21,115 nt of DNA from Candidatus Auribacterota bacterium (GCA_023136205.1 JAGLRQ010000058.1:1-21115); one strand, 5' to 3'. Positions 1 through 10,518 are shown, numbered from the stretch's first letter. Numbers and translations are program-made. The notes: generated by a model not told the origin, from the letters alone.

Positions 1-103
1 TGTAACTTAAGGCGTATTCAAATGTACCGGGCAGTATCTGTTCCTCAAACCAGACCGGGATCAACTGTCCCTGGTCGTAAGAGTATTTTTTATATCTTGC
101 CAT
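1..103 (-). CDS. IS1182-family-like DDE transposase, N-terminal fragment (gene runs off the left edge)
   Basis: Too short for the ORF track. The reverse strand has GGAGGAG (110-116), a 6-nt spacer and ATG (101-103), then MARYKKYSYDQGQLIPVWFEEQILPGTFEYALSY. The pattern MxxYKxYxYxQ...P..F..QIxPGTFEYxL matches my memory of IS1182-family transposase N-termini. Only 34 codons are visible. Confidence 0.55.
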   Translation of the reverse strand, partial: MARYKKYSYDQGQLIPVWFEEQILPGTFEYALSY

Positions 104-289: not shown

Positions 290-360
290 CCGCGTTGCGC
301 AAGCATAACATCAATATTTTATTGCCGCAAGCGCCTATTCAATGTCGGAAGCAATTGTTA
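290..360. repeat. Copy A of a ~70-bp GC-rich structured repeat (paralog of 2197-2269)
   Basis: CCGCGTTGCGCAAGCATAACATCAATATTTTATTGCCGCAAGCGCCTATTCAATGTCGGAAGCAATTGTTA. The core at 323-348 is 22/26 identical to 2228-2253. The flanking ATAACAT and TTGTTA blocks are shared with copy B. Arms 290-297 and 341-348 can pair. Confidence 0.6.
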
Positions 361-399
361 GAAATTTTTATCATTTTTATTTGTCAAGATTAAAGATTT

Positions 400-444
400 G
401 ACCCCGTTTTCTATCAGACCCCGTTTTCTAGACCCTGTTTTCTA
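400..444. repeat. Three tandem direct repeats of GACCC[C/T]GTTTTCTA
   Basis: Copies at 400-413, 417-430 and 431-444. The first two are identical and the third has one C>T change. An AT-rich duplicated ATTTTTAT (364-371, 373-380) lies just before them. A related CCCCGTTTCTA occurs at 3122-3132. Confidence 0.85.
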
Positions 445-487
445 TTTTATGGGGTGGTTCTGTCAACTCCGTTGAGTATTTAAATAA

Positions 488-1612
488 TTAGGTGTTCTGT
501 CCCCCGGTTGCTCGTCCCCCGGTTGCTCTCCCTTTTTTCGTGTTAAAAGTAATGATGAATAAGTGTTTGCTGTAGGGGCACCCATTTTTTTCTTCTACGA
601 ATGCTTCGTTTGTAACGGAAATGGTTGCGTTCATAAAACTTAACGCCTTGCGGACTATGTACATCCCAATACCAGAGCCCTCTTGACTAAGTTTTCCTGC
701 CGCTCCTGATTTAATATATTTCCCCCTCCGCCCTTCGAGAAAAATAAGATCTGTTTCATCGCTTTCGATGCTTACACTAGTTGTTGATATGAATAGTTTC
801 TGAGGTCTGGTCTGAAGGTCTGCTGATATTACCACCTCGCTATTGGACATTGAGTATTTACTTATATTATCGAGGAGTTGCCAAATAGACGCGTTGAACA
901 AATCATGAATAATAGGGATCTTGTATTTTGCCGAATGGTCTGAATTGATTTTAATATCAATGGTTACACCTTTTTTGCGCAGCTCATCAATAAACGGGTT
1001 AGTTAACCGAAAAATAGCTTTGGATATGTCAGCCTTAAGAAAAGAGCCCGTAGCATCTGCGTAACCAGCAATGATTCTGAGCGTTTCTATTTGAGCATCT
1101 AGATCAATGGCACGGTGAGACATTTGGCAAATGTCGTTCGCTGCAATGCTAGTGTTACCTTTGATTCTGCGCTCAACTTCCTTCTGAAAATCCTTATAAG
1201 GTCTAGACCGAGCCTTATCTGAGATAAGTCTGGCAAAATTATCCTTAAACCGTTTTTGAAACTTTATCAGGTTGTGTGCAAATCTTCTGATAATTGCATC
1301 GAAATGCTGCCGTTCTGAATCTCTGAACTGTTGGATGCGAGGAATTAAACTTAGGTAAATTCCGCAAGCTCGACGAACAGCCGCTCCCGCAGGGAAATCA
1401 GGGTGATTTTTATCAACTACTACTCGGACAGATCCATGCTCATTTTCTCGATAGGCATTTCTTAAAGAGCCAATTGAAAAATTGTTCTTATGGTTCAGTA
1501 TGAATTCTGGATCCAATTGCTCGGTACTTCCTTCTTTTACGATCAGAGTTCCCGCTGAATCCCATAGCTCAAAATATACAATTCCATCATTCATGGATTT
1601 TTTTCGCAGCAT
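488..1612 (-). CDS. Soluble (no TM) histidine-kinase-like GHKL ATPase with an unassigned ~100-aa N-terminal domain
   Basis: H-box-like RRFAHNLIKF, N-box LLDNISKYS and G2 box GSGIGMYIV. An alternative start at 1594 (MNDGIVYF) would overlap the upstream stop as ATGAATGA. Neither start has a good SD. Confidence 0.75.
   Translation of the reverse strand: MLRKKSMNDGIVYFELWDSAGTLIVKEGSTEQLDPEFILNHKNNFSIGSLRNAYRENEHGSVRVVVDKNHPDFPAGAAVRRACGIYLSLIPRIQQFRDSERQHFDAIIRRFAHNLIKFQKRFKDNFARLISDKARSRPYKDFQKEVERRIKGNTSIAANDICQMSHRAIDLDAQIETLRIIAGYADATGSFLKADISKAIFRLTNPFIDELRKKGVTIDIKINSDHSAKYKIPIIHDLFNASIWQLLDNISKYSMSNSEVVISADLQTRPQKLFISTTSVSIESDETDLIFLEGRRGKYIKSGAAGKLSQEGSGIGMYIVRKALSFMNATISVTNEAFVEEKNGCPYSKHLFIITFNTKKGRATGGRATGGQNT
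499..528. repeat. Perfect 15-bp tandem duplication GTCCCCCGGTTGCTC x2 inside the 3' end of the kinase ORF
   Basis: 499-513 equals 514-528 exactly. It is in frame and gives the C-terminal tail RATGGRATGG after the ATPase domain ends. Confidence 0.9.
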
Positions 1613-2081
1613 CTTCTATCAGGTCAACGAATACATATGGATCAGAATTTTTTGCTATCCAAGCGTCAGCAATGTCATGAAATTCATGCCCCGGGATAAA
1701 TCCTGCATAGCCTGAGTAAAAGACGATGAATTTCTCGGGATAGCGACGTTTTATCTCTTTCAACAAACCAATTCCTTCATCGGTAGGCGTTAAAGCCTGC
1801 CCCACACCAATATAATCCATAAAAATAATATTCGCGTGCTCAATTTCAGGGCAATTAAAATTCGTAACATCATTAATCTGATTAACTGACCATCCAGCAT
1901 CCCGGATGCTTTGTAACCGAGTGCTAAAATCCTCGTCATCTACAAATAGAACATGCGTTCTCTTTTTTAATTCATCAATAGTAAGCCCTGATGGCTTTTT
2001 TCGATTGCACTTATCCACAAGAGATTTCAGCCCAAGGGATATTAAAAAACTTCCTATTTTTTCTCCGATAAATGACCACAT
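1587..2081 (-). CDS. Stand-alone response-regulator receiver (REC) domain with an N-terminal hydrophobic helix and no output domain
   Basis: REC signature VLFVDDE / IIFMDY / VFYSGY / IAKNSDP. The N-terminus is MWSFIGEKIGSFLISLGLKSLV. I prefer the start at 2081 because GAGGAA (2088-2093) lies 6 nt upstream. The track start at 2105 has no SD. Confidence 0.75.
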   Translation of the reverse strand: MWSFIGEKIGSFLISLGLKSLVDKCNRKKPSGLTIDELKKRTHVLFVDDEDFSTRLQSIRDAGWSVNQINDVTNFNCPEIEHANIIFMDYIGVGQALTPTDEGIGLLKEIKRRYPEKFIVFYSGYAGFIPGHEFHDIADAWIAKNSDPYVFVDLIEDAAKKIHE

Positions 2082-2196
2082 ACATTTTTCCTCTTGAGCG
2101 CCCATAAAGCTGGGGTTATTTCAGGTTGCAAAATATCGCAACGAAAATGGTGCTAGCTACTTTATTTATGATTTTGATTCGAACGGTTGAACTAAG

Positions 2197-2269
2197 CCGC
2201 GTGGGAATTAACATAGATCAGCTTTGCTGCCACAAGCGCCTGTTCCACGTCGGCTTCAGTGATTTGTTA
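2197..2269. repeat. Copy B of the ~70-bp structured repeat (paralog of 290-360)
   Basis: CCGCGTGGGAATTAACATAGATCAGCTTTGCTGCCACAAGCGCCTGTTCCACGTCGGCTTCAGTGATTTGTTA. Its last bases (TTA, 2267-2269) are the stop codon of the nuclease gene. Arms 2197-2207 and 2243-2253 pair with single bulges. Confidence 0.6.
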
Positions 2270-3076
2270 TAAGTTTTCCTCGTTTTTTAAGTCATTATAG
2301 TGATAGTATCTTAATTCAATATTTGCAGGACATTCTTCGATTTTTCTTTCCCAATAGTTTTTCGTTTTCGATAATTTCTCTTTATCAAAGTTATATACCA
2401 ATACAATTATCGTTTTAAGATCACCTTTCATATAATGATTTGCAATCACTATTTGATAAAGAAGTCTGTCTATAATTGTAATCCCAGAAATGGGAGCTCT
2501 TAAAAACTTGACCTCTATGGCAATAGTTGTTTTGCCTCGGTCTGCTACTATAGCATCAAAAGATATATTAGTTTCTGCTATTTTGACTTCTCGAACAGCT
2601 TTACGACCAAGCTCTTTCTCTAATTTTGAAATAGCAAGGTTTTCTGCATTCCTTATATAATTTTTAATAGTTTCTCTGTCTTCAAATCGTGATGTATTTT
2701 GTTTGTTTTCTGAAATAGCACTTGGTCGCTTTGGTAAATTAGTTAACTCTTCAACTTCTTGCTCCAACCGATTCTTCTGTTCTTGGGGAGACAGCGTATA
2801 TAGAAATGATTGATCATACTTATAGTCACTTGGAGCATATAACTTTCCATGGTGTTTTGTAACCAATCTGTAGAAAGCTAGTAGCACGAAAAGTGGGAAG
2901 ATTACTATAAATACAACAAGAGGAAAACGCTCTTCCTGTGAAAGTTTGTCTGCTGAAGAATTTAACAGTAAAGTTGCAAAACCATAAATCATTGATATAA
3001 ATAGCGCAATAATTCCTAAGGGGTTACGCGCTAGATCTCTGGCTATACGACCAAAGACACTTATGTCGTTTGCCAT
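2267..3076 (-). CDS. Membrane-anchored (2 N-terminal TM helices) protein with a C-terminal PD-(D/E)xK-like nuclease-fold domain
   Basis: Helices NPLGIIALFISMIYGFATLLL and FPLVVFIVIFPLFVLLAFY. The C-terminal domain has a D..(n)..E-x-K pattern (ISFDAIVADRGKTTIAIEVKFL). A strong SD AAGGAG lies 6 nt upstream of the ATG. The nuclease assignment rests on the motif only. Confidence 0.6.
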   Translation of the reverse strand: MANDISVFGRIARDLARNPLGIIALFISMIYGFATLLLNSSADKLSQEERFPLVVFIVIFPLFVLLAFYRLVTKHHGKLYAPSDYKYDQSFLYTLSPQEQKNRLEQEVEELTNLPKRPSAISENKQNTSRFEDRETIKNYIRNAENLAISKLEKELGRKAVREVKIAETNISFDAIVADRGKTTIAIEVKFLRAPISGITIIDRLLYQIVIANHYMKGDLKTIIVLVYNFDKEKLSKTKNYWERKIEECPANIELRYYHYNDLKNEENL

Positions 3077-7499: not shown

Positions 7500-8996
7500 A
7501 TGTCTAATTTTGCTTATTGCAATAGCTGTAGACAAACTGTGCCTGCTGAATATGTTATACGCGGCAGCAATGTGTACCTTGCCAAGAAATGTCCGAAGTG
7601 TGGAATGAATGAGACCTTGATTTCAAGTGATGTGGACGCGTATAAGAAAAAATTTGATTTTATGGGCGATGTGGCTTATGAGAGCTGTGGGTTAAATTGC
7701 CTGGAGTGTGAACATAAGGTTCCGAACATCGCGTTTGTGGAGCTTACGAACAGATGTAATATGAACTGTCCAATCTGTATTACCAATGTTCCGTCAATGG
7801 GATTTGAATTTGAGCCGGACATGGAATATTTTAAGCTTATTTTTGAAGACCTTTCTAAATTAGATCCCAAACCCTCCATTCAGCTCTTTGGGGGAGAACC
7901 TACTGTGAGAGAAGATCTTTTTGATATTATCAGGCTTGCTAAATCTTACGGCCTTTCGGTAAGAGTGGTTACAAACGGCCTGAAGCTTGCCGATAAGAAG
8001 TACTGTGAAAAGCTGATAGAAGAAGGAGTCTCAATTCTTATATCGTTTGACGGGTTTAACAAAAAAATGTATGAAATGTTCAGAGGAATGCCTGAGGCGT
8101 TGGATCTTAAATTGAAAGCTCTTGAAAATCTCGCGCGGAGAAAAAGCGGCAAAGTTATTTTAATGACCGTGGCTTCAAAGGAGCAGGACAGCGAAGATTT
8201 GAAGAAATTGTTTGATTACTGTGTAAAAAATAAAAAGATTACAAGAGGTATTTTTATTATGCCGTTGGCGCATATGTGGTCGCCTGAAAGGCTGGACTAT
8301 AATCCTGAAAGGACTACTCCCGAAGATGTAGAGCATATGGTTGACAACGCGGTGGGAGGCGGCCTTGAATTTGTTCCCCTGGGTTCTCTTGACACAAAGG
8401 TTTTTAATAAGGTCCTTAATTTGAAAGATATGCCTTTTGTCGGTGTGCATCCTAACTGTGAGAGTATAACGGTTCTCGTTTCGGACGGGGAAAGGTTATT
8501 GCCTGTGTCGAAATTCCTGAAAAAAGGTTTATTTGGCCTTATAAACGATTTAAGGAATGTAGGGAAAGATATTTCAGGGCAGAAAGAGGTAGGGTTTTTA
8601 TTCAGGATTAAGGTTTACACGGCCCTTATTAAAATTTTGTTCTGTAATTTTGATTTCGGGGCAGCGGTTGGCCAGAAGGGAGTTAAAGCATTTTTCAAAT
8701 GGATAAAAATAGCCGGCAGGTTAATCTCAGGAACGAAGCTTAAGGATGTAATTAGAGCAGAGACCAGAATGAAAGGGGCTCTTCAGGTGATGGTGCTTCC
8801 GTTTGAGGATTATGACACAGCAGAAGCTGTCCGGCTGAAAATGTGCACTTCCTGTTTTGTTTACCCTGAAGATAGGAATGGAAACGTTAAGTATATTCCT
8901 GTTTGCGCGTGGGAAAAGAACAAAAAGATTGCAATGAAAAAAGTTGCCGAGTTGTTTAATAAGCCGGGTTTTAATAAAGGATTGTCCAGGAAATAA
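7500..8996 (+). CDS. Radical SAM enzyme with an N-terminal Cys4 ribbon and auxiliary Cys clusters (Tes/GDGT-MAS/MJ0619-like architecture), paralog 1
   Basis: N-terminal CNSC...CPKC. Extra CGLNCLEC. Radical SAM CNMNCPIC (CxxxCxxC). GGEPT motif. C-terminal CTSC...C. SD AAGGAGA. The radical SAM call is firm; the Tes-family assignment is from memory of the architecture. Confidence 0.8.
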   Translation: MSNFAYCNSCRQTVPAEYVIRGSNVYLAKKCPKCGMNETLISSDVDAYKKKFDFMGDVAYESCGLNCLECEHKVPNIAFVELTNRCNMNCPICITNVPSMGFEFEPDMEYFKLIFEDLSKLDPKPSIQLFGGEPTVREDLFDIIRLAKSYGLSVRVVTNGLKLADKKYCEKLIEEGVSILISFDGFNKKMYEMFRGMPEALDLKLKALENLARRKSGKVILMTVASKEQDSEDLKKLFDYCVKNKKITRGIFIMPLAHMWSPERLDYNPERTTPEDVEHMVDNAVGGGLEFVPLGSLDTKVFNKVLNLKDMPFVGVHPNCESITVLVSDGERLLPVSKFLKKGLFGLINDLRNVGKDISGQKEVGFLFRIKVYTALIKILFCNFDFGAAVGQKGVKAFFKWIKIAGRLISGTKLKDVIRAETRMKGALQVMVLPFEDYDTAEAVRLKMCTSCFVYPEDRNGNVKYIPVCAWEKNKKIAMKKVAELFNKPGFNKGLSRK

Positions 8997-8997
8997 A

Positions 8998-10518
8998 ATG
9001 TGGCAGAAGAAATTCAAGAGCGTATGTCCTGTTTGCGACCGCCCCGTTGACGGATTATTTTATGAGGAAAACAACCAGGTTTTCCTAAAGAAAACCTGTC
9101 CTGAACACGGAGAAGTCAGGGACCTTGCTTCATCAGATGCTGAACTTTTTTCCGGAAAGATGGACCTTGTCCCCGAAGATTATTCTGAAAAATGCAGTCT
9201 GGAAAAATGTGGTTCGGGGATATTCGCCTGCCAGGACCATTTCGCCAGAAAATCTCCAATAACATTTATAGAGGTTACTACCCGGTGTAACATGAGCTGT
9301 CCCGTATGTTATATAGACGCAGGTACAAAAGGAAGGGATATTCCGCTTGAAGATATAAAAAAAATAATTTCAGAAATCAAAAAGCATGATCCTGGAACCC
9401 ATCTGGTTCTTATCGGGGGAGAACCAACAATTCATAAAGATTTCTTTAAAATACTTGAAGCTGTCCGGGAAGCCGGCCTTATAAAAAGGTGTTATCTTGC
9501 GACTAACGGCATAACACTTTCCAGTGAGGAATTTTGCAAAAAGGTGTACGACGCGGGAATAAGATGGTATTACCTGGCGTTTGACAGTGTGGACAAAGAA
9601 ATGTGTAAGCAGGTAAGGGGAAGTTATAGGTCGTATGAGGCATCCAGGAAGACTATTGAAAATTTAAAGAAATTTAGCCGCGCGAAAATTGTGCTTTCCG
9701 TTACAGTGGTTAAAGGGGTAAACGATAAAGGCCTCCCGGCTGTTCTTGATTTCGCGGTAAGAAACAAAGATGTTGTTAAAAGAATTTCTATTTCCGCGGA
9801 AGTCTTTTGCGGGAGACAGACATCATCAGAAGATTTGCTTAAAAAGAGAATAACATCTGAATGTATAGAGAGTATATTAAGAAGAACTCTTGGTAATGGC
9901 GCGGCGACTATGTCACTGGCGCTTTACGGCACAATCCTTAAACCGCTCAATCTTGCCGGACTTCTTCCGAAGAGAACGGGAATTTACACTATGCCGCATC
10001 CGTTATGCGGAAACATTGGTTTTTTGTTCCGGGCCGATGACGGCTCTTATTTTTCGGTAATAGGCCTCGCGATTAAAAATTCCGCGGCTGATTTATATAA
10101 GTACGGTAAAAAGGTTAAGGATTTTTCGGTTAGGATGGAGAAAAGAAAGAAAATATTGCGCGCAAAACTTTTTGGCAATATCCTCTGGAAGCTTATAGCT
10201 TTTTGTTATTATGTTCCGGTATATTTCGGGATGATTCTTACTTTCATTAAACCTTCATTTGTTTTTAGAGCAGTTATGGCCTTCCCAAAATCGATTTTTA
10301 CCGGGAAAAAGGTAAGTGAATGTCTGCTTGGCAAAGACAGGGTAGAGATACACTATCTGGTCAGCTGTGATAAGTATAACTTTGTCTGGGAGAGGATGCC
10401 TTATTGCGCTACACACCATTATAGAATAGATGCCGGCACAAAAAAAGTCACAAAAATGTGCGGTTGTTATGTTTTTCCCTTCCGAAGTTATGCTGATTCA
10501 TGTAATACAATGGGATAG
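8998..10518 (+). CDS. Radical SAM enzyme, paralog 2 of the same family, with a hydrophobic C-terminal segment
   Basis: Start taken at ATG 8998, one nt after the paralog-1 stop (TAA-A-ATG). N-terminal CPVC...CPEHG. CNMSCPVC. GGEPT. C-terminal C...CGC. Hydrophobic stretch ILWKLIAFCYYVPVYFGMILTFI. The track start at 8944 overlaps the upstream gene and is unlikely. Confidence 0.8.
   Translation: MWQKKFKSVCPVCDRPVDGLFYEENNQVFLKKTCPEHGEVRDLASSDAELFSGKMDLVPEDYSEKCSLEKCGSGIFACQDHFARKSPITFIEVTTRCNMSCPVCYIDAGTKGRDIPLEDIKKIISEIKKHDPGTHLVLIGGEPTIHKDFFKILEAVREAGLIKRCYLATNGITLSSEEFCKKVYDAGIRWYYLAFDSVDKEMCKQVRGSYRSYEASRKTIENLKKFSRAKIVLSVTVVKGVNDKGLPAVLDFAVRNKDVVKRISISAEVFCGRQTSSEDLLKKRITSECIESILRRTLGNGAATMSLALYGTILKPLNLAGLLPKRTGIYTMPHPLCGNIGFLFRADDGSYFSVIGLAIKNSAADLYKYGKKVKDFSVRMEKRKKILRAKLFGNILWKLIAFCYYVPVYFGMILTFIKPSFVFRAVMAFPKSIFTGKKVSECLLGKDRVEIHYLVSCDKYNFVWERMPYCATHHYRIDAGTKKVTKMCGCYVFPFRSYADSCNTMG

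Follow-up and report, generated by a model that had tools for sequence, protein, structure and literature searches.

A PDC-M43-type receiver–kinase pair beside a membrane-anchored PD-(D/E)xK nuclease in Candidatus Aureabacteria: probably two candidate defence units in one accessory islet

When a membrane-anchored nuclease, a receiver protein that lacks an output domain and a histidine kinase are encoded next to each other on one strand, do they form a single phosphorelay defence system, or are they simply neighbours? The question is raised by a stretch of 21,115 nucleotides from Candidatus Auribacterota bacterium (GCA_023136205.1 JAGLRQ010000058.1:1-21115), hereafter the window, which belongs to a metagenome-assembled genome (MAG) of Candidatus Aureabacteria and in which all positions are counted from the first nucleotide as 1. 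Three open reading frames (ORFs), all on the minus strand, lie between positions 3076 and 488 and encode, in this order, the nuclease, the receiver and the kinase (Table 1). The first-pass annotation of the window joined them into one module with the logic of the Detocs immune system. Our analysis favours a different picture, in which the locus is, on balance, probably a small accessory islet at the contig edge of the MAG, bounded by an insertion sequence (IS) and carrying two independent candidate defence units, a receiver–kinase pair and a stand-alone nuclease gene. That these are two separate units instead of one three-gene system is very likely, and the three-gene arrangement most likely reflects adjacency. 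The prospect that either unit is truly antiviral is about even or marginally better. Chance ORFs can be ruled out because each of the three proteins has tens to hundreds of full-length homologs. Protein residues are numbered from the homolog-supported starts unless the 172-aa or 374-aa ORF translation is named.

The receiver–kinase unit almost certainly belongs to PDC-M43, a candidate defence system represented in PADLOC-DB. The receiver matched the PDC-M43A model PDLC04646 (E 3.4e-34, 116 bits) over residues 34-169 of the 172-aa ORF translation, and two further PDC-M43A models at about 3e-19; the kinase matched the PDC-M43B model PDLC04647 (E 3.3e-31, 107 bits) over residues 47-359 of the 374-aa ORF translation, and three further PDC-M43B models as well. 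No PADLOC-DB model other than those of PDC-M43 matched the locus at E<=1. The two genes stand in the order A then B on one strand, which is the order of PDC-M43, and the pair agrees with PDC-M43 in every feature that could be tested, such that the statement of the first-pass annotation that the genes map to no named system no longer holds. The PDC set was assembled from genes embedded within BREX, DISARM or type I restriction-modification (RM) loci, that is, through 'guilt-by-embedding' (Payne et al., bioRxiv 10.1101/2024.01.29.577857), and supplementary file 8 of that study has an entry CAS_00151 (FAM_00604>>FAM_02649) that carries the number 72 and the remark 'Assign as candidate PDC-M43'. 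The terms 'histidine kinase', 'response regulator' and 'two-component' never occur in the main text of the same paper (bioRxiv 10.1101/2024.01.29.577857). We considered and rejected a reading of 'PDC-M' as Millman candidates; the PDC set of Payne et al. comprises single-gene and multi-gene candidates, and we read M as 'multi-gene'. A literature search on the name 'PDC-M43' yielded no paper mentioning it. Among the predictions of an independent machine-learning study is an unvalidated system that combines HATPase and REC domains and may be the PDC-M43 family or another one.

The separation of the pair from the nuclease is most apparent from the comparison of loci. In each of the 15 distinct loci that offered sufficient sequence, several of which are located in defence islands, the receiver gene lies next to the kinase gene, whereas a member of the nuclease family stands beside the pair in one of the 15 contexts, namely in this population alone. 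Relatives of the pair at 80-82% identity occur without the nuclease, and the pair is absent from the chromosomal loci of Vibrio vulnificus, Thauera and Halomonas that contain a full-length nuclease homolog. The phyletic spread of the nuclease family differs from that of the pair, and its genes appear as lone cassettes of the integron type. In V. vulnificus, a ~133-nt repeat occurs at least 13 times in the array that houses the nuclease homolog, with copies on both sides of the gene and with Phd/ParE and small cassettes nearby; we regard this array as a chromosomal-integron cassette array (superintegron). The Thauera homolog abuts an IS-interrupted integrase, and the Halomonas homolog is located near CcdAB.

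Within the window, a diverged direct repeat of ~56 nt, with a core of 31 nt in which 25 positions are identical, brackets only the ~1.9-kb receiver–kinase pair. The alignment of the two copies scored 38, compared with 20.2 +/- 2.5 for shuffled sequences, none of 500 of which reached 38, and with a maximum of 29 for real-sequence controls; the repeat was found solely in contigs of this population. This bracketing suggests a separate insertion of the pair, and, in the simplest reading of the sequence, a nuclease cassette was already in place when the ~1.9-kb pair inserted downstream of it. The nuclease stop is followed by a hairpin within copy B (dG -13.4 kcal/mol, z = -2.4). Examination of the repeat for attC-like features gave a folding z of about 0.2 for copy A and of -2.4 for copy B, with no clean R''/R' boxes in either; the repeat could be an insertion scar or a set of hybrid recombination sites.

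These data bear directly on the reading of the three genes as one phosphorelay defence system, in which the kinase would signal through the receiver to the membrane nuclease as the effector. Several features of the locus do invite it: the genes are co-stranded, with an intergenic gap of 185 nt between nuclease and receiver; the receiver itself lacks an output domain; the two-helix transmembrane (2-TM) module of the nuclease is fused to receivers in the Escherichia coli protein WP_000433086.1 and in the IMG/VR locus L044 (discussed below); and other pairs often have nuclease-like upstream neighbours (DUF2726, GIY-YIG, PDDEXK_1). Furthermore, Detocs has variants with restriction endonuclease (REase; PF18742) and TM effectors (bioRxiv 10.1101/2023.01.24.525353), and PF18742 is the top Pfam match, albeit a weak one, of the nuclease domain. 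However, this reading is at odds with the occurrence of the nuclease in a single one of the 15 contexts and with its different spread as a lone cassette, with the repeat that brackets the pair by itself and the hairpin that follows the nuclease stop, and with the pairs that are found alone between core genes elsewhere. Moreover, the receivers fused to the 2-TM module are generic ones that score ~0 bits against a PDC-M43A-type profile. A single three-gene system is therefore improbable, and the module of the first-pass annotation resolves into two parts.

What kind of element is the pair? Its distribution is patchy, covering Aureabacteria, Patescibacteria, Bdellovibrionaceae and a conjugative plasmid of Shewanella, and its neighbours differ from locus to locus. 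In L004, the pair is accompanied by a DruK/Cas4-like PDDEXK protein, a TIR-like protein (PDC-S66/ThsB-like) and proteins with DCD and Nuc_deoxyrib_tr domains; in L008, by a C5 methylase with a 370-aa gene, a trypsin-like protease, IS91 and an integrase; in L011, by a serine recombinase and a DUF2726 protein; and in L037, by a PycTIR effector (3e-104), a type IV methyl-directed REase (8e-64) and a DUF3800 protein. GIY-YIG proteins are the neighbours in L028 and L034, and on the Shewanella plasmid (L025) a distant variant of the pair is found beside HigBA. In L001, the pair occupies a variable spot downstream of dnaX, and L014 is a bare two-gene insert between dprA and topA, which indicates that the pair is autonomous. 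Collectively, these contexts are consistent with an autonomous two-gene cassette that spreads by horizontal transfer and frequently, though not invariably, resides in defence islands. With its match to PDC-M43A/B, its patchiness across phyla and several homologs among PADLOC-confirmed defence genes, the pair retains the status of a phosphorelay-type defence candidate that the first-pass annotation had given to the whole locus.

A more mundane explanation is an ordinary orphan two-component pair, acquired horizontally and serving regulation or housekeeping, for instance through a CheY-like single-domain regulator that acts on a host protein; on this view, it happens to lie beside an unrelated nuclease and neither unit is antiviral. 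Single-domain receivers (CheY/CpdR-type regulators) are common in normal signalling, NCBIfam gave weak CpdR/CckA-type matches, and several of the homologous pairs lie among core genes in the reduced genomes of Patescibacteria. This explanation is nevertheless unlikely given the scatter of the pair over distant bacterial groups and a conjugative plasmid, the repeated presence of PADLOC-confirmed defence genes and recombinases in its flanks, the discovery of the PDC-M43 family inside BREX, DISARM and type I RM loci, and the IS-adjacent, repeat-bracketed position of the pair in the window.

Alternatively, the pair might be an accessory or addiction module, either akin to toxin-antitoxin (TA) systems, with the kinase restraining a toxic tethered receiver, or modulating neighbouring defence systems. 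Its embedding in multi-gene systems, its proximity to recombinases, to IS elements and, on one plasmid, to TA genes, its lack of a recognisable enzymatic effector and its strict 1:1 translational coupling, which resembles that of TA operons, would all be in line with such a role. Yet the neighbours vary in every context, so that no specific system appears to be modulated, and the conserved and complete phosphotransfer apparatus is more elaborate than typical TA pairs. We consider this alternative quite improbable as a separate explanation; it also overlaps with the preferred one, as many abortive-infection systems behave in a TA-like manner.

Two of the loci merit separate description. On plasmid pSBAL11701 of Shewanella baltica OS117 (L025:6800-8498), the pair lies beside HigB/antitoxin genes and near a diadenylate cyclase gene; its receiver (214 aa) has a clear TM helix, its kinase has 353 aa, and the two genes overlap by 8 nt. 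The pair of a Bdellovibrionaceae MAG (L003:881-2406) looks degraded: the tblastn alignment of the kinase extends over 1366-2394, the longest ORF covers just 1855-2406, and the receiver ORF has an aberrant C-terminal extension. Genome and metagenome scans added few further pair loci. With respect to phage carriage, tblastn searches with the kinase and the nuclease against 50,697 phage genomes gave no match, and IMG/VR contained no relatives of the kinase.

The two genes of the pair are tightly linked. The kinase ORF as listed begins at 1612 (374 aa), and the homologs support the ATG at 1594 (MNDGI...), which gives a protein of 368 aa. The receiver stop and this kinase start overlap by 8 nt, ATGAATGA, as the first-pass annotation had noticed, and the identical overlap recurs in five homologous pairs (L004, L008, L028, L034 and the Shewanella plasmid L025), a recurrence that we interpret as translational coupling of receiver and kinase.

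For the receiver, the ORF as listed starts at 2105 (172 aa), and the start that matches the homologs (MWSF...), which follows an AGAGGA motif, is at 2081. Pfam Response_reg gave no match at E<=1 and NCBIfam no significant match. The family profile of the receiver, compared with PDB sequences, retrieved solved response regulators and CheY (E 1.4e-4 to 2e-2), and D48, D49, D89 (in FMDY), S123 and K144 are invariant in 20 homologs (D56/D57/D97/S131/K152 in the 172-aa alignment numbering). As judged from the alignment, the receiver domain is divergent but complete, with all canonical residues present. No DNA-binding or enzymatic output domain was detected in Pfam, in NCBIfam or in the alignment, and the receiver domain ends the protein. 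A complete receiver with no output, as proposed by the first-pass annotation, was thus confirmed, but the membrane helix that was assigned to it was not: the N-terminal helix has a hydrophobicity score (KD19) of 1.24, under the threshold of 1.6, in a subfamily that ranges from 0.4 to 1.7, and its amphipathic moments are moderate. When 1.84 billion representative proteins were searched with the receiver profile, 923 relatives were recovered at E<=1e-3, including 415 at E<=1e-10. In most of the 36 relatives that we inspected, the receiver domain is preceded by a low-complexity linker and by one or two unambiguous TM helices, and therefore a helix-tethered receiver is a trait of the wider family; a minority have a C-terminal extension instead.

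The kinase is, as the first-pass annotation had it, a protein of the GHKL type with no TM segment (maximal KD19 1.05) and with an N-terminal domain that defies assignment. Pfam gave a marginal match to HATPase_c (2.8e-6) and no significant HisKA-type match. In an alignment of 26 homologs, H107 and N108 (RRFAHNL), N243, K246 and Y247 (LLDNxSKY) and G308-I309-G310 are invariant, and the G1 box is degenerate throughout the family, with I-[ED]-x-D-E in place of DxGxG. The family thereby combines an unusual H-box, in which an invariant Asn directly follows the phospho-His (FAHNL), with an altered G1 box. The alignment-based AlphaFold2 (AF2) model of the kinase (pLDDT 86) consists of an N-terminal beta domain (residues 1-65, with strands within 5-61), DHp helices at 70-123 and 133-176, and a CA domain at 186-350, and Foldseek aligned it with HK853, WalK, HprS, CusS and LOV-kinase chimeras in the PDB (E 2.5e-13 to 1e-9). 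The N-terminal domain of ~65 aa had no Pfam match, and its profile retrieved nothing among PDB sequences at E<=10, on account of which we regard it as family-specific. Three of its residues, N38, R49 and G54 (RNxYR region), are invariant and may mark a binding site. The last 16 residues (353-368, KKGRATGGRATGGQNT) have no counterpart in any homolog and are modelled as disordered (pLDDT <50). They are encoded by the 15-nt tandem repeat GTCCCCCGGTTGCTC at 499-528, and this repeat-encoded, non-homologous tail suggests that the original 3' end of the kinase gene was remodelled.

The third gene encodes a 269-aa protein, for which the first-pass prediction of two N-terminal TM helices followed by a domain with a D...E-x-K pattern was borne out by two KD19 peaks, by the AF2 model and by conservation of D174, E188 and K190. 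After the second helix comes an invariant juxtamembrane motif, HHGKLYAPxD..D.SFL (residues 75-92), where conservation within the family is highest. The AF2 model has a mean pLDDT of 81, and the C-terminal domain (128-269; pLDDT >90) shows an alpha-beta-beta-beta-alpha-beta-alpha-beta topology with the elements H128-156, E161-165, E172-177, E184-192, H195-215 and E220-228. Among 30 homologs, D174 (FDAIVAD), K190 (IAIEVKFL) and E145 of helix 1 are conserved in at least 90%, and position 188 is always E or D. Pfam matches of the domain were weak (DpnII-MboI, 0.012; NOV_C, 0.053). Foldseek retrieved SfsA, Can2, NucS/EndoMS, BstEII, EcoO109I, the Avs4 nuclease domain and Card1 from the PDB, and restriction endonucleases, endonuclease I, DUF2726 and Mrr proteins from viral models (BFVD). 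The top matches are all PD-(D/E)xK proteins (probability 0.9-1.0, E 2e-4 to 1e-1), and the E-values are modest because only ~120-150 of the 269 residues align. We conclude that the protein is a predicted nuclease, with a modelled PD-(D/E)xK fold and a conserved catalytic pattern. The fold considered in the first-pass annotation was recovered by AF2 and Foldseek, and Pfam matched neither of the families named there, Mrr_cat and DUF4263. More than 380 full-length proteins, 250-300 aa long and for the most part from gammaproteobacteria (Vibrio, Halomonas, Marinobacter, Thauera, Aliivibrio), make up the nuclease family, which is new in sequence and known in architecture.

The N-terminal part of the nuclease is not confined to this family. 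In WP_000433086.1 (256 aa, annotated as 'response regulator' in the RefSeq entry underlying L033), the 2-TM/HHxKLYxPSD module (48% identity over 85 aa, E 2e-23) precedes a C-terminal receiver domain (Pfam Response_reg, 1.4e-7). This gene (2TM-REC) is present in 28 of 5,426 complete E. coli genomes, between yfgI and guaA, and adjoins an AAA_15/AAA_21 ATPase (PDC-M01A/AriA-like) and an integrase remnant, with no kinase adjacent; together with the ATPase, it looks like an uncharacterised defence-type pair. We rejected the possibility that its receiver is PDC-M43A-like, as it scored ~0 bits with the family profile, just as CheY did. In IMG/VR, the module is fused to a receiver in L044:5980-6762, with a 4-nt overlap with an upstream CAP12/PCTIR TIR-domain gene (8.6e-23), to a weakly predicted winged helix-turn-helix (wHTH) domain in L042:6001-6816, and to an unassigned domain in L040:5989-6786; phrog_26238 also matches the module (2.8e-9). 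These fusions portray it as a reusable membrane part that can apparently be placed under receiver control.

Such fusions would permit a particular form of cooperation among the three genes of the window, in which the phospho-state of the receiver, set by the kinase, gates the nuclease through the 2-TM/HHGKLYAP module, the two proteins together amounting to a split '2TM-receiver' effector. If this were true, pairs of the PDC-M43 type could more broadly serve as portable sensor cassettes, working with whichever effectors lie next to them. We consider this form of cooperation highly improbable; the fusion hint does not outweigh the co-occurrence data on the matter of cross-talk.

How, then, might the pair act by itself? 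The N-terminal beta domain of the kinase would sense a cytoplasmic infection cue, and sensing would alter phosphotransfer from H107 of the kinase to D89 of the receiver. Because the receiver has no enzymatic or DNA-binding domain, it would act via its own helix, which appears to be weak and amphipathic in the receiver of the window and a true TM segment in the majority of distant relatives. Phospho-dependent self-association of the receiver via the tethered N-terminal helix might then perturb the membrane or engage an unknown partner and lead to growth arrest, that is, abortive infection. This specific receiver-as-effector mechanism is a tentative proposal that we consider doubtful. As for the nuclease, the weakly asymmetric flanking charges (+1 at the N-terminus, -1 in the loop, +1 after TM2) are noted here alongside a presumed N-in/C-in topology, which would place the nuclease domain in the cytoplasm, where it might cut DNA at the membrane or upon activation.

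Several considerations weigh against the interpretation of the locus as two candidate defence units, one of which works through a tethered receiver. PDC-M43 is among the 145 untested candidates that were added to PADLOC (Payne et al., bioRxiv 10.1101/2024.01.29.577857). The helix of the window receiver is too weakly hydrophobic for the protein to be called membrane-anchored, and with no TM helix predicted, the idea of the receiver as a membrane effector is weakened for the subfamily to which it belongs. The receiver domain is far better conserved than the helix, which could point instead to some protein partner. With the G1 box degenerate, ATP binding by the kinase is no more than plausible. 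Some contexts of the pair (L014, L001) are flanked by core genes. The domain-fusion ('Rosetta-stone') hint leaves some probability to a functional link between nuclease and receiver. Finally, we know of no member of PDC-M43 or of the nuclease family that has been tested.

Table 1. Positions of the features of the locus (whole-window coordinates) and of the related E. coli gene
Feature	Position	Strand	Evidence or remark
IS transposase gene, 5' end	1..103	-	starts MARYKKYSYDQGQLIPVW (MARYKKYSYDQ...), DUF772/InsH N-terminal type, runs off window edge
Direct-repeat copy A	323..378	.	downstream of kinase
Tandem repeats GACCCCGTTTTCTA x3 (400-444) and GTCCCCCGGTTGCTC x2 (499-528)	400..528	.	between kinase and IS
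PDC-M43B-type soluble histidine kinase, 368 aa	488..1594	-	PADLOC, AF2, Foldseek, alignment
Receiver stop/kinase start overlap, 8 nt, ATGAATGA	1587..1594	-	sequence
PDC-M43A-type receiver, 164 aa: N-terminal ~40-aa weakly hydrophobic helix and basic linker, then receiver domain	1587..2081	-	PADLOC, alignment, profile
Direct-repeat copy B	2228..2287	.	last 7 nuclease codons and downstream hairpin
Membrane protein, 269 aa, stand-alone gene: 2-TM N-terminal module and predicted PD-(D/E)xK domain	2267..3076	-	ORF, homologs, AF2, Foldseek
Predicted PD-(D/E)xK domain, residues 128-269, with E145, D174, E188, K190	2270..2695	-	AF2, motif, Pfam, Foldseek
Two TM helices, residues ~20-40 and ~51-72	2861..3019	-	KD19 peaks 2.34 (residue 20) and 2.75 (residue 51)
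E. coli 2TM-REC gene	L032:5986-6756 and L033:9001-9771		yfgI-guaA interval

The surroundings of the three genes agree with the first-pass description of an IS transposase fragment on the left and housekeeping genes on the right. The assignment of the fragment is supported by a match of Pfam PF05598 (DUF772) to the same transposase gene in L017. Public contigs carrying the locus end at or just past this gene, as is expected for a repeated element. The right flank comprises ordinary genes for Mem_trans, methyltransferase, NUDIX, OmpA/LysM, radical-SAM, lipid A acyltransferase and spermidine synthesis proteins. Within this housekeeping flank, positions 7500-10518 contain two tandem radical-SAM genes (~498 and 506-524 aa) whose products have an N-terminal Zn_ribbon_HMPTM domain; they adjoin the OmpA/LysM gene and lie upstream of genes for the lipid A acyltransferase and an epimerase. 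The GC composition of 488-3076 shows no clear anomaly relative to the window, and scans for promoters and terminators gave no more sites than in shuffled sequence.

To our knowledge, few defence systems have been described in Patescibacteria, where PDC-M43 is widespread. If antiviral, PDC-M43 would be a second phosphorelay immune example after Detocs, unrelated to it and simpler, with a kinase and a helix-tethered receiver and no enzymatic effector. The present analysis gives PDC-M43 a domain-level description, including the phospho-His and phospho-Asp as mutational targets, a sensor domain matched neither in Pfam nor by PDB sequences and, in the wider family, a TM-tethered receiver. It also sets the nuclease apart as an independent cassette family, similar in architecture to the validated Epona system, and brings to light a conserved 2-TM module that has been recombined with nuclease, receiver and other C-terminal domains.

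A comparison with known systems places both units more precisely. Like canonical two-component systems, the pair has the His on a DHp hairpin, N and G boxes in a GHKL-type CA domain and the DD-D-S/T-K residues in its receiver; the lack of a DNA-binding output in the receiver is shared with single-domain response regulators of the CheY/CpdR kind. The pair differs from canonical systems in having no significant HisKA-type or Response_reg match in Pfam, in its FAHNL H-box and degenerate G1, and in its accessory, mobile context.

Detocs offers the nearest parallel in logic invoked by the first-pass annotation. It consists of three genes, including a buffer receiver (DtcB), a TPR kinase and a receiver with a C-terminal effector such as PNP; both the His and the Asp are required, and the MacSyFinder model needs all three genes (bioRxiv 10.1101/2023.01.24.525353). 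The window pair resembles it in its logic, in which a histidine kinase and an Asp receiver would serve immune signalling and not transcriptional switching, with H107 conserved in 26 kinases and D89 in 20 receivers. In contrast to Detocs, the window contains two genes instead of three, with one receiver gene and no buffer receiver; the receiver domain is C-terminal, preceded by only a short N-terminal helix, and not followed by an effector; and the sensor of the kinase is a ~65-aa beta domain and not a TPR region. The kinase had no PADLOC match outside PDC-M43 at E<=1, in a copy of PADLOC for which the presence of Detocs HMMs was not confirmed. The pair thus departs from Detocs in three of four criteria, namely gene number, effector fusion and kinase type, and the likeness seen at first pass applies to the logic and to none of the architectural traits tried.

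For the nuclease, Shedu (DUF4263) gave no Pfam or PADLOC match, and the Shedu structure 8ti8 ranked 50th in Foldseek with a probability of 0.18. Proteins of the WP_000433086.1 type have the same N-terminal 2-TM/HHxKLYxPSD module; they and their IMG/VR relatives differ in that the C-terminal domain is a generic receiver, a weak wHTH or an unassigned domain, not a nuclease, and in their neighbours, an AAA_15/AAA_21 ATPase in E. coli or a CAP12/PCTIR TIR protein in L044. Compared by description, the closest described analogue appears to be Epona, a validated integron-cassette system of Vibrio cholerae that combines an Mrr_cat nuclease with a two-TM 'holin' domain (Darracq et al., bioRxiv 10.1101/2024.07.02.601686). 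Both are encoded by a single gene and have two N-terminal TM helices and a PD-(D/E)xK domain, and relatives of the window nuclease occur in the V. vulnificus cassette array. The window nuclease differs in having no Pfam Mrr_cat match at E<=1 and in belonging to a family that spans many gammaproteobacteria and this MAG, whereas Epona has been described as nearly restricted to V. cholerae (bioRxiv 10.1101/2024.07.02.601686).

As to PDC-M43, which is itself a prediction, the window pair, from an uncultured Aureabacteria MAG, represents a short-helix subfamily with a receiver that has no clear TM segment, and shares with it what defines the assignment: both proteins match its hidden Markov models (HMMs) over nearly their full length and are encoded as a two-gene A>>B cassette.

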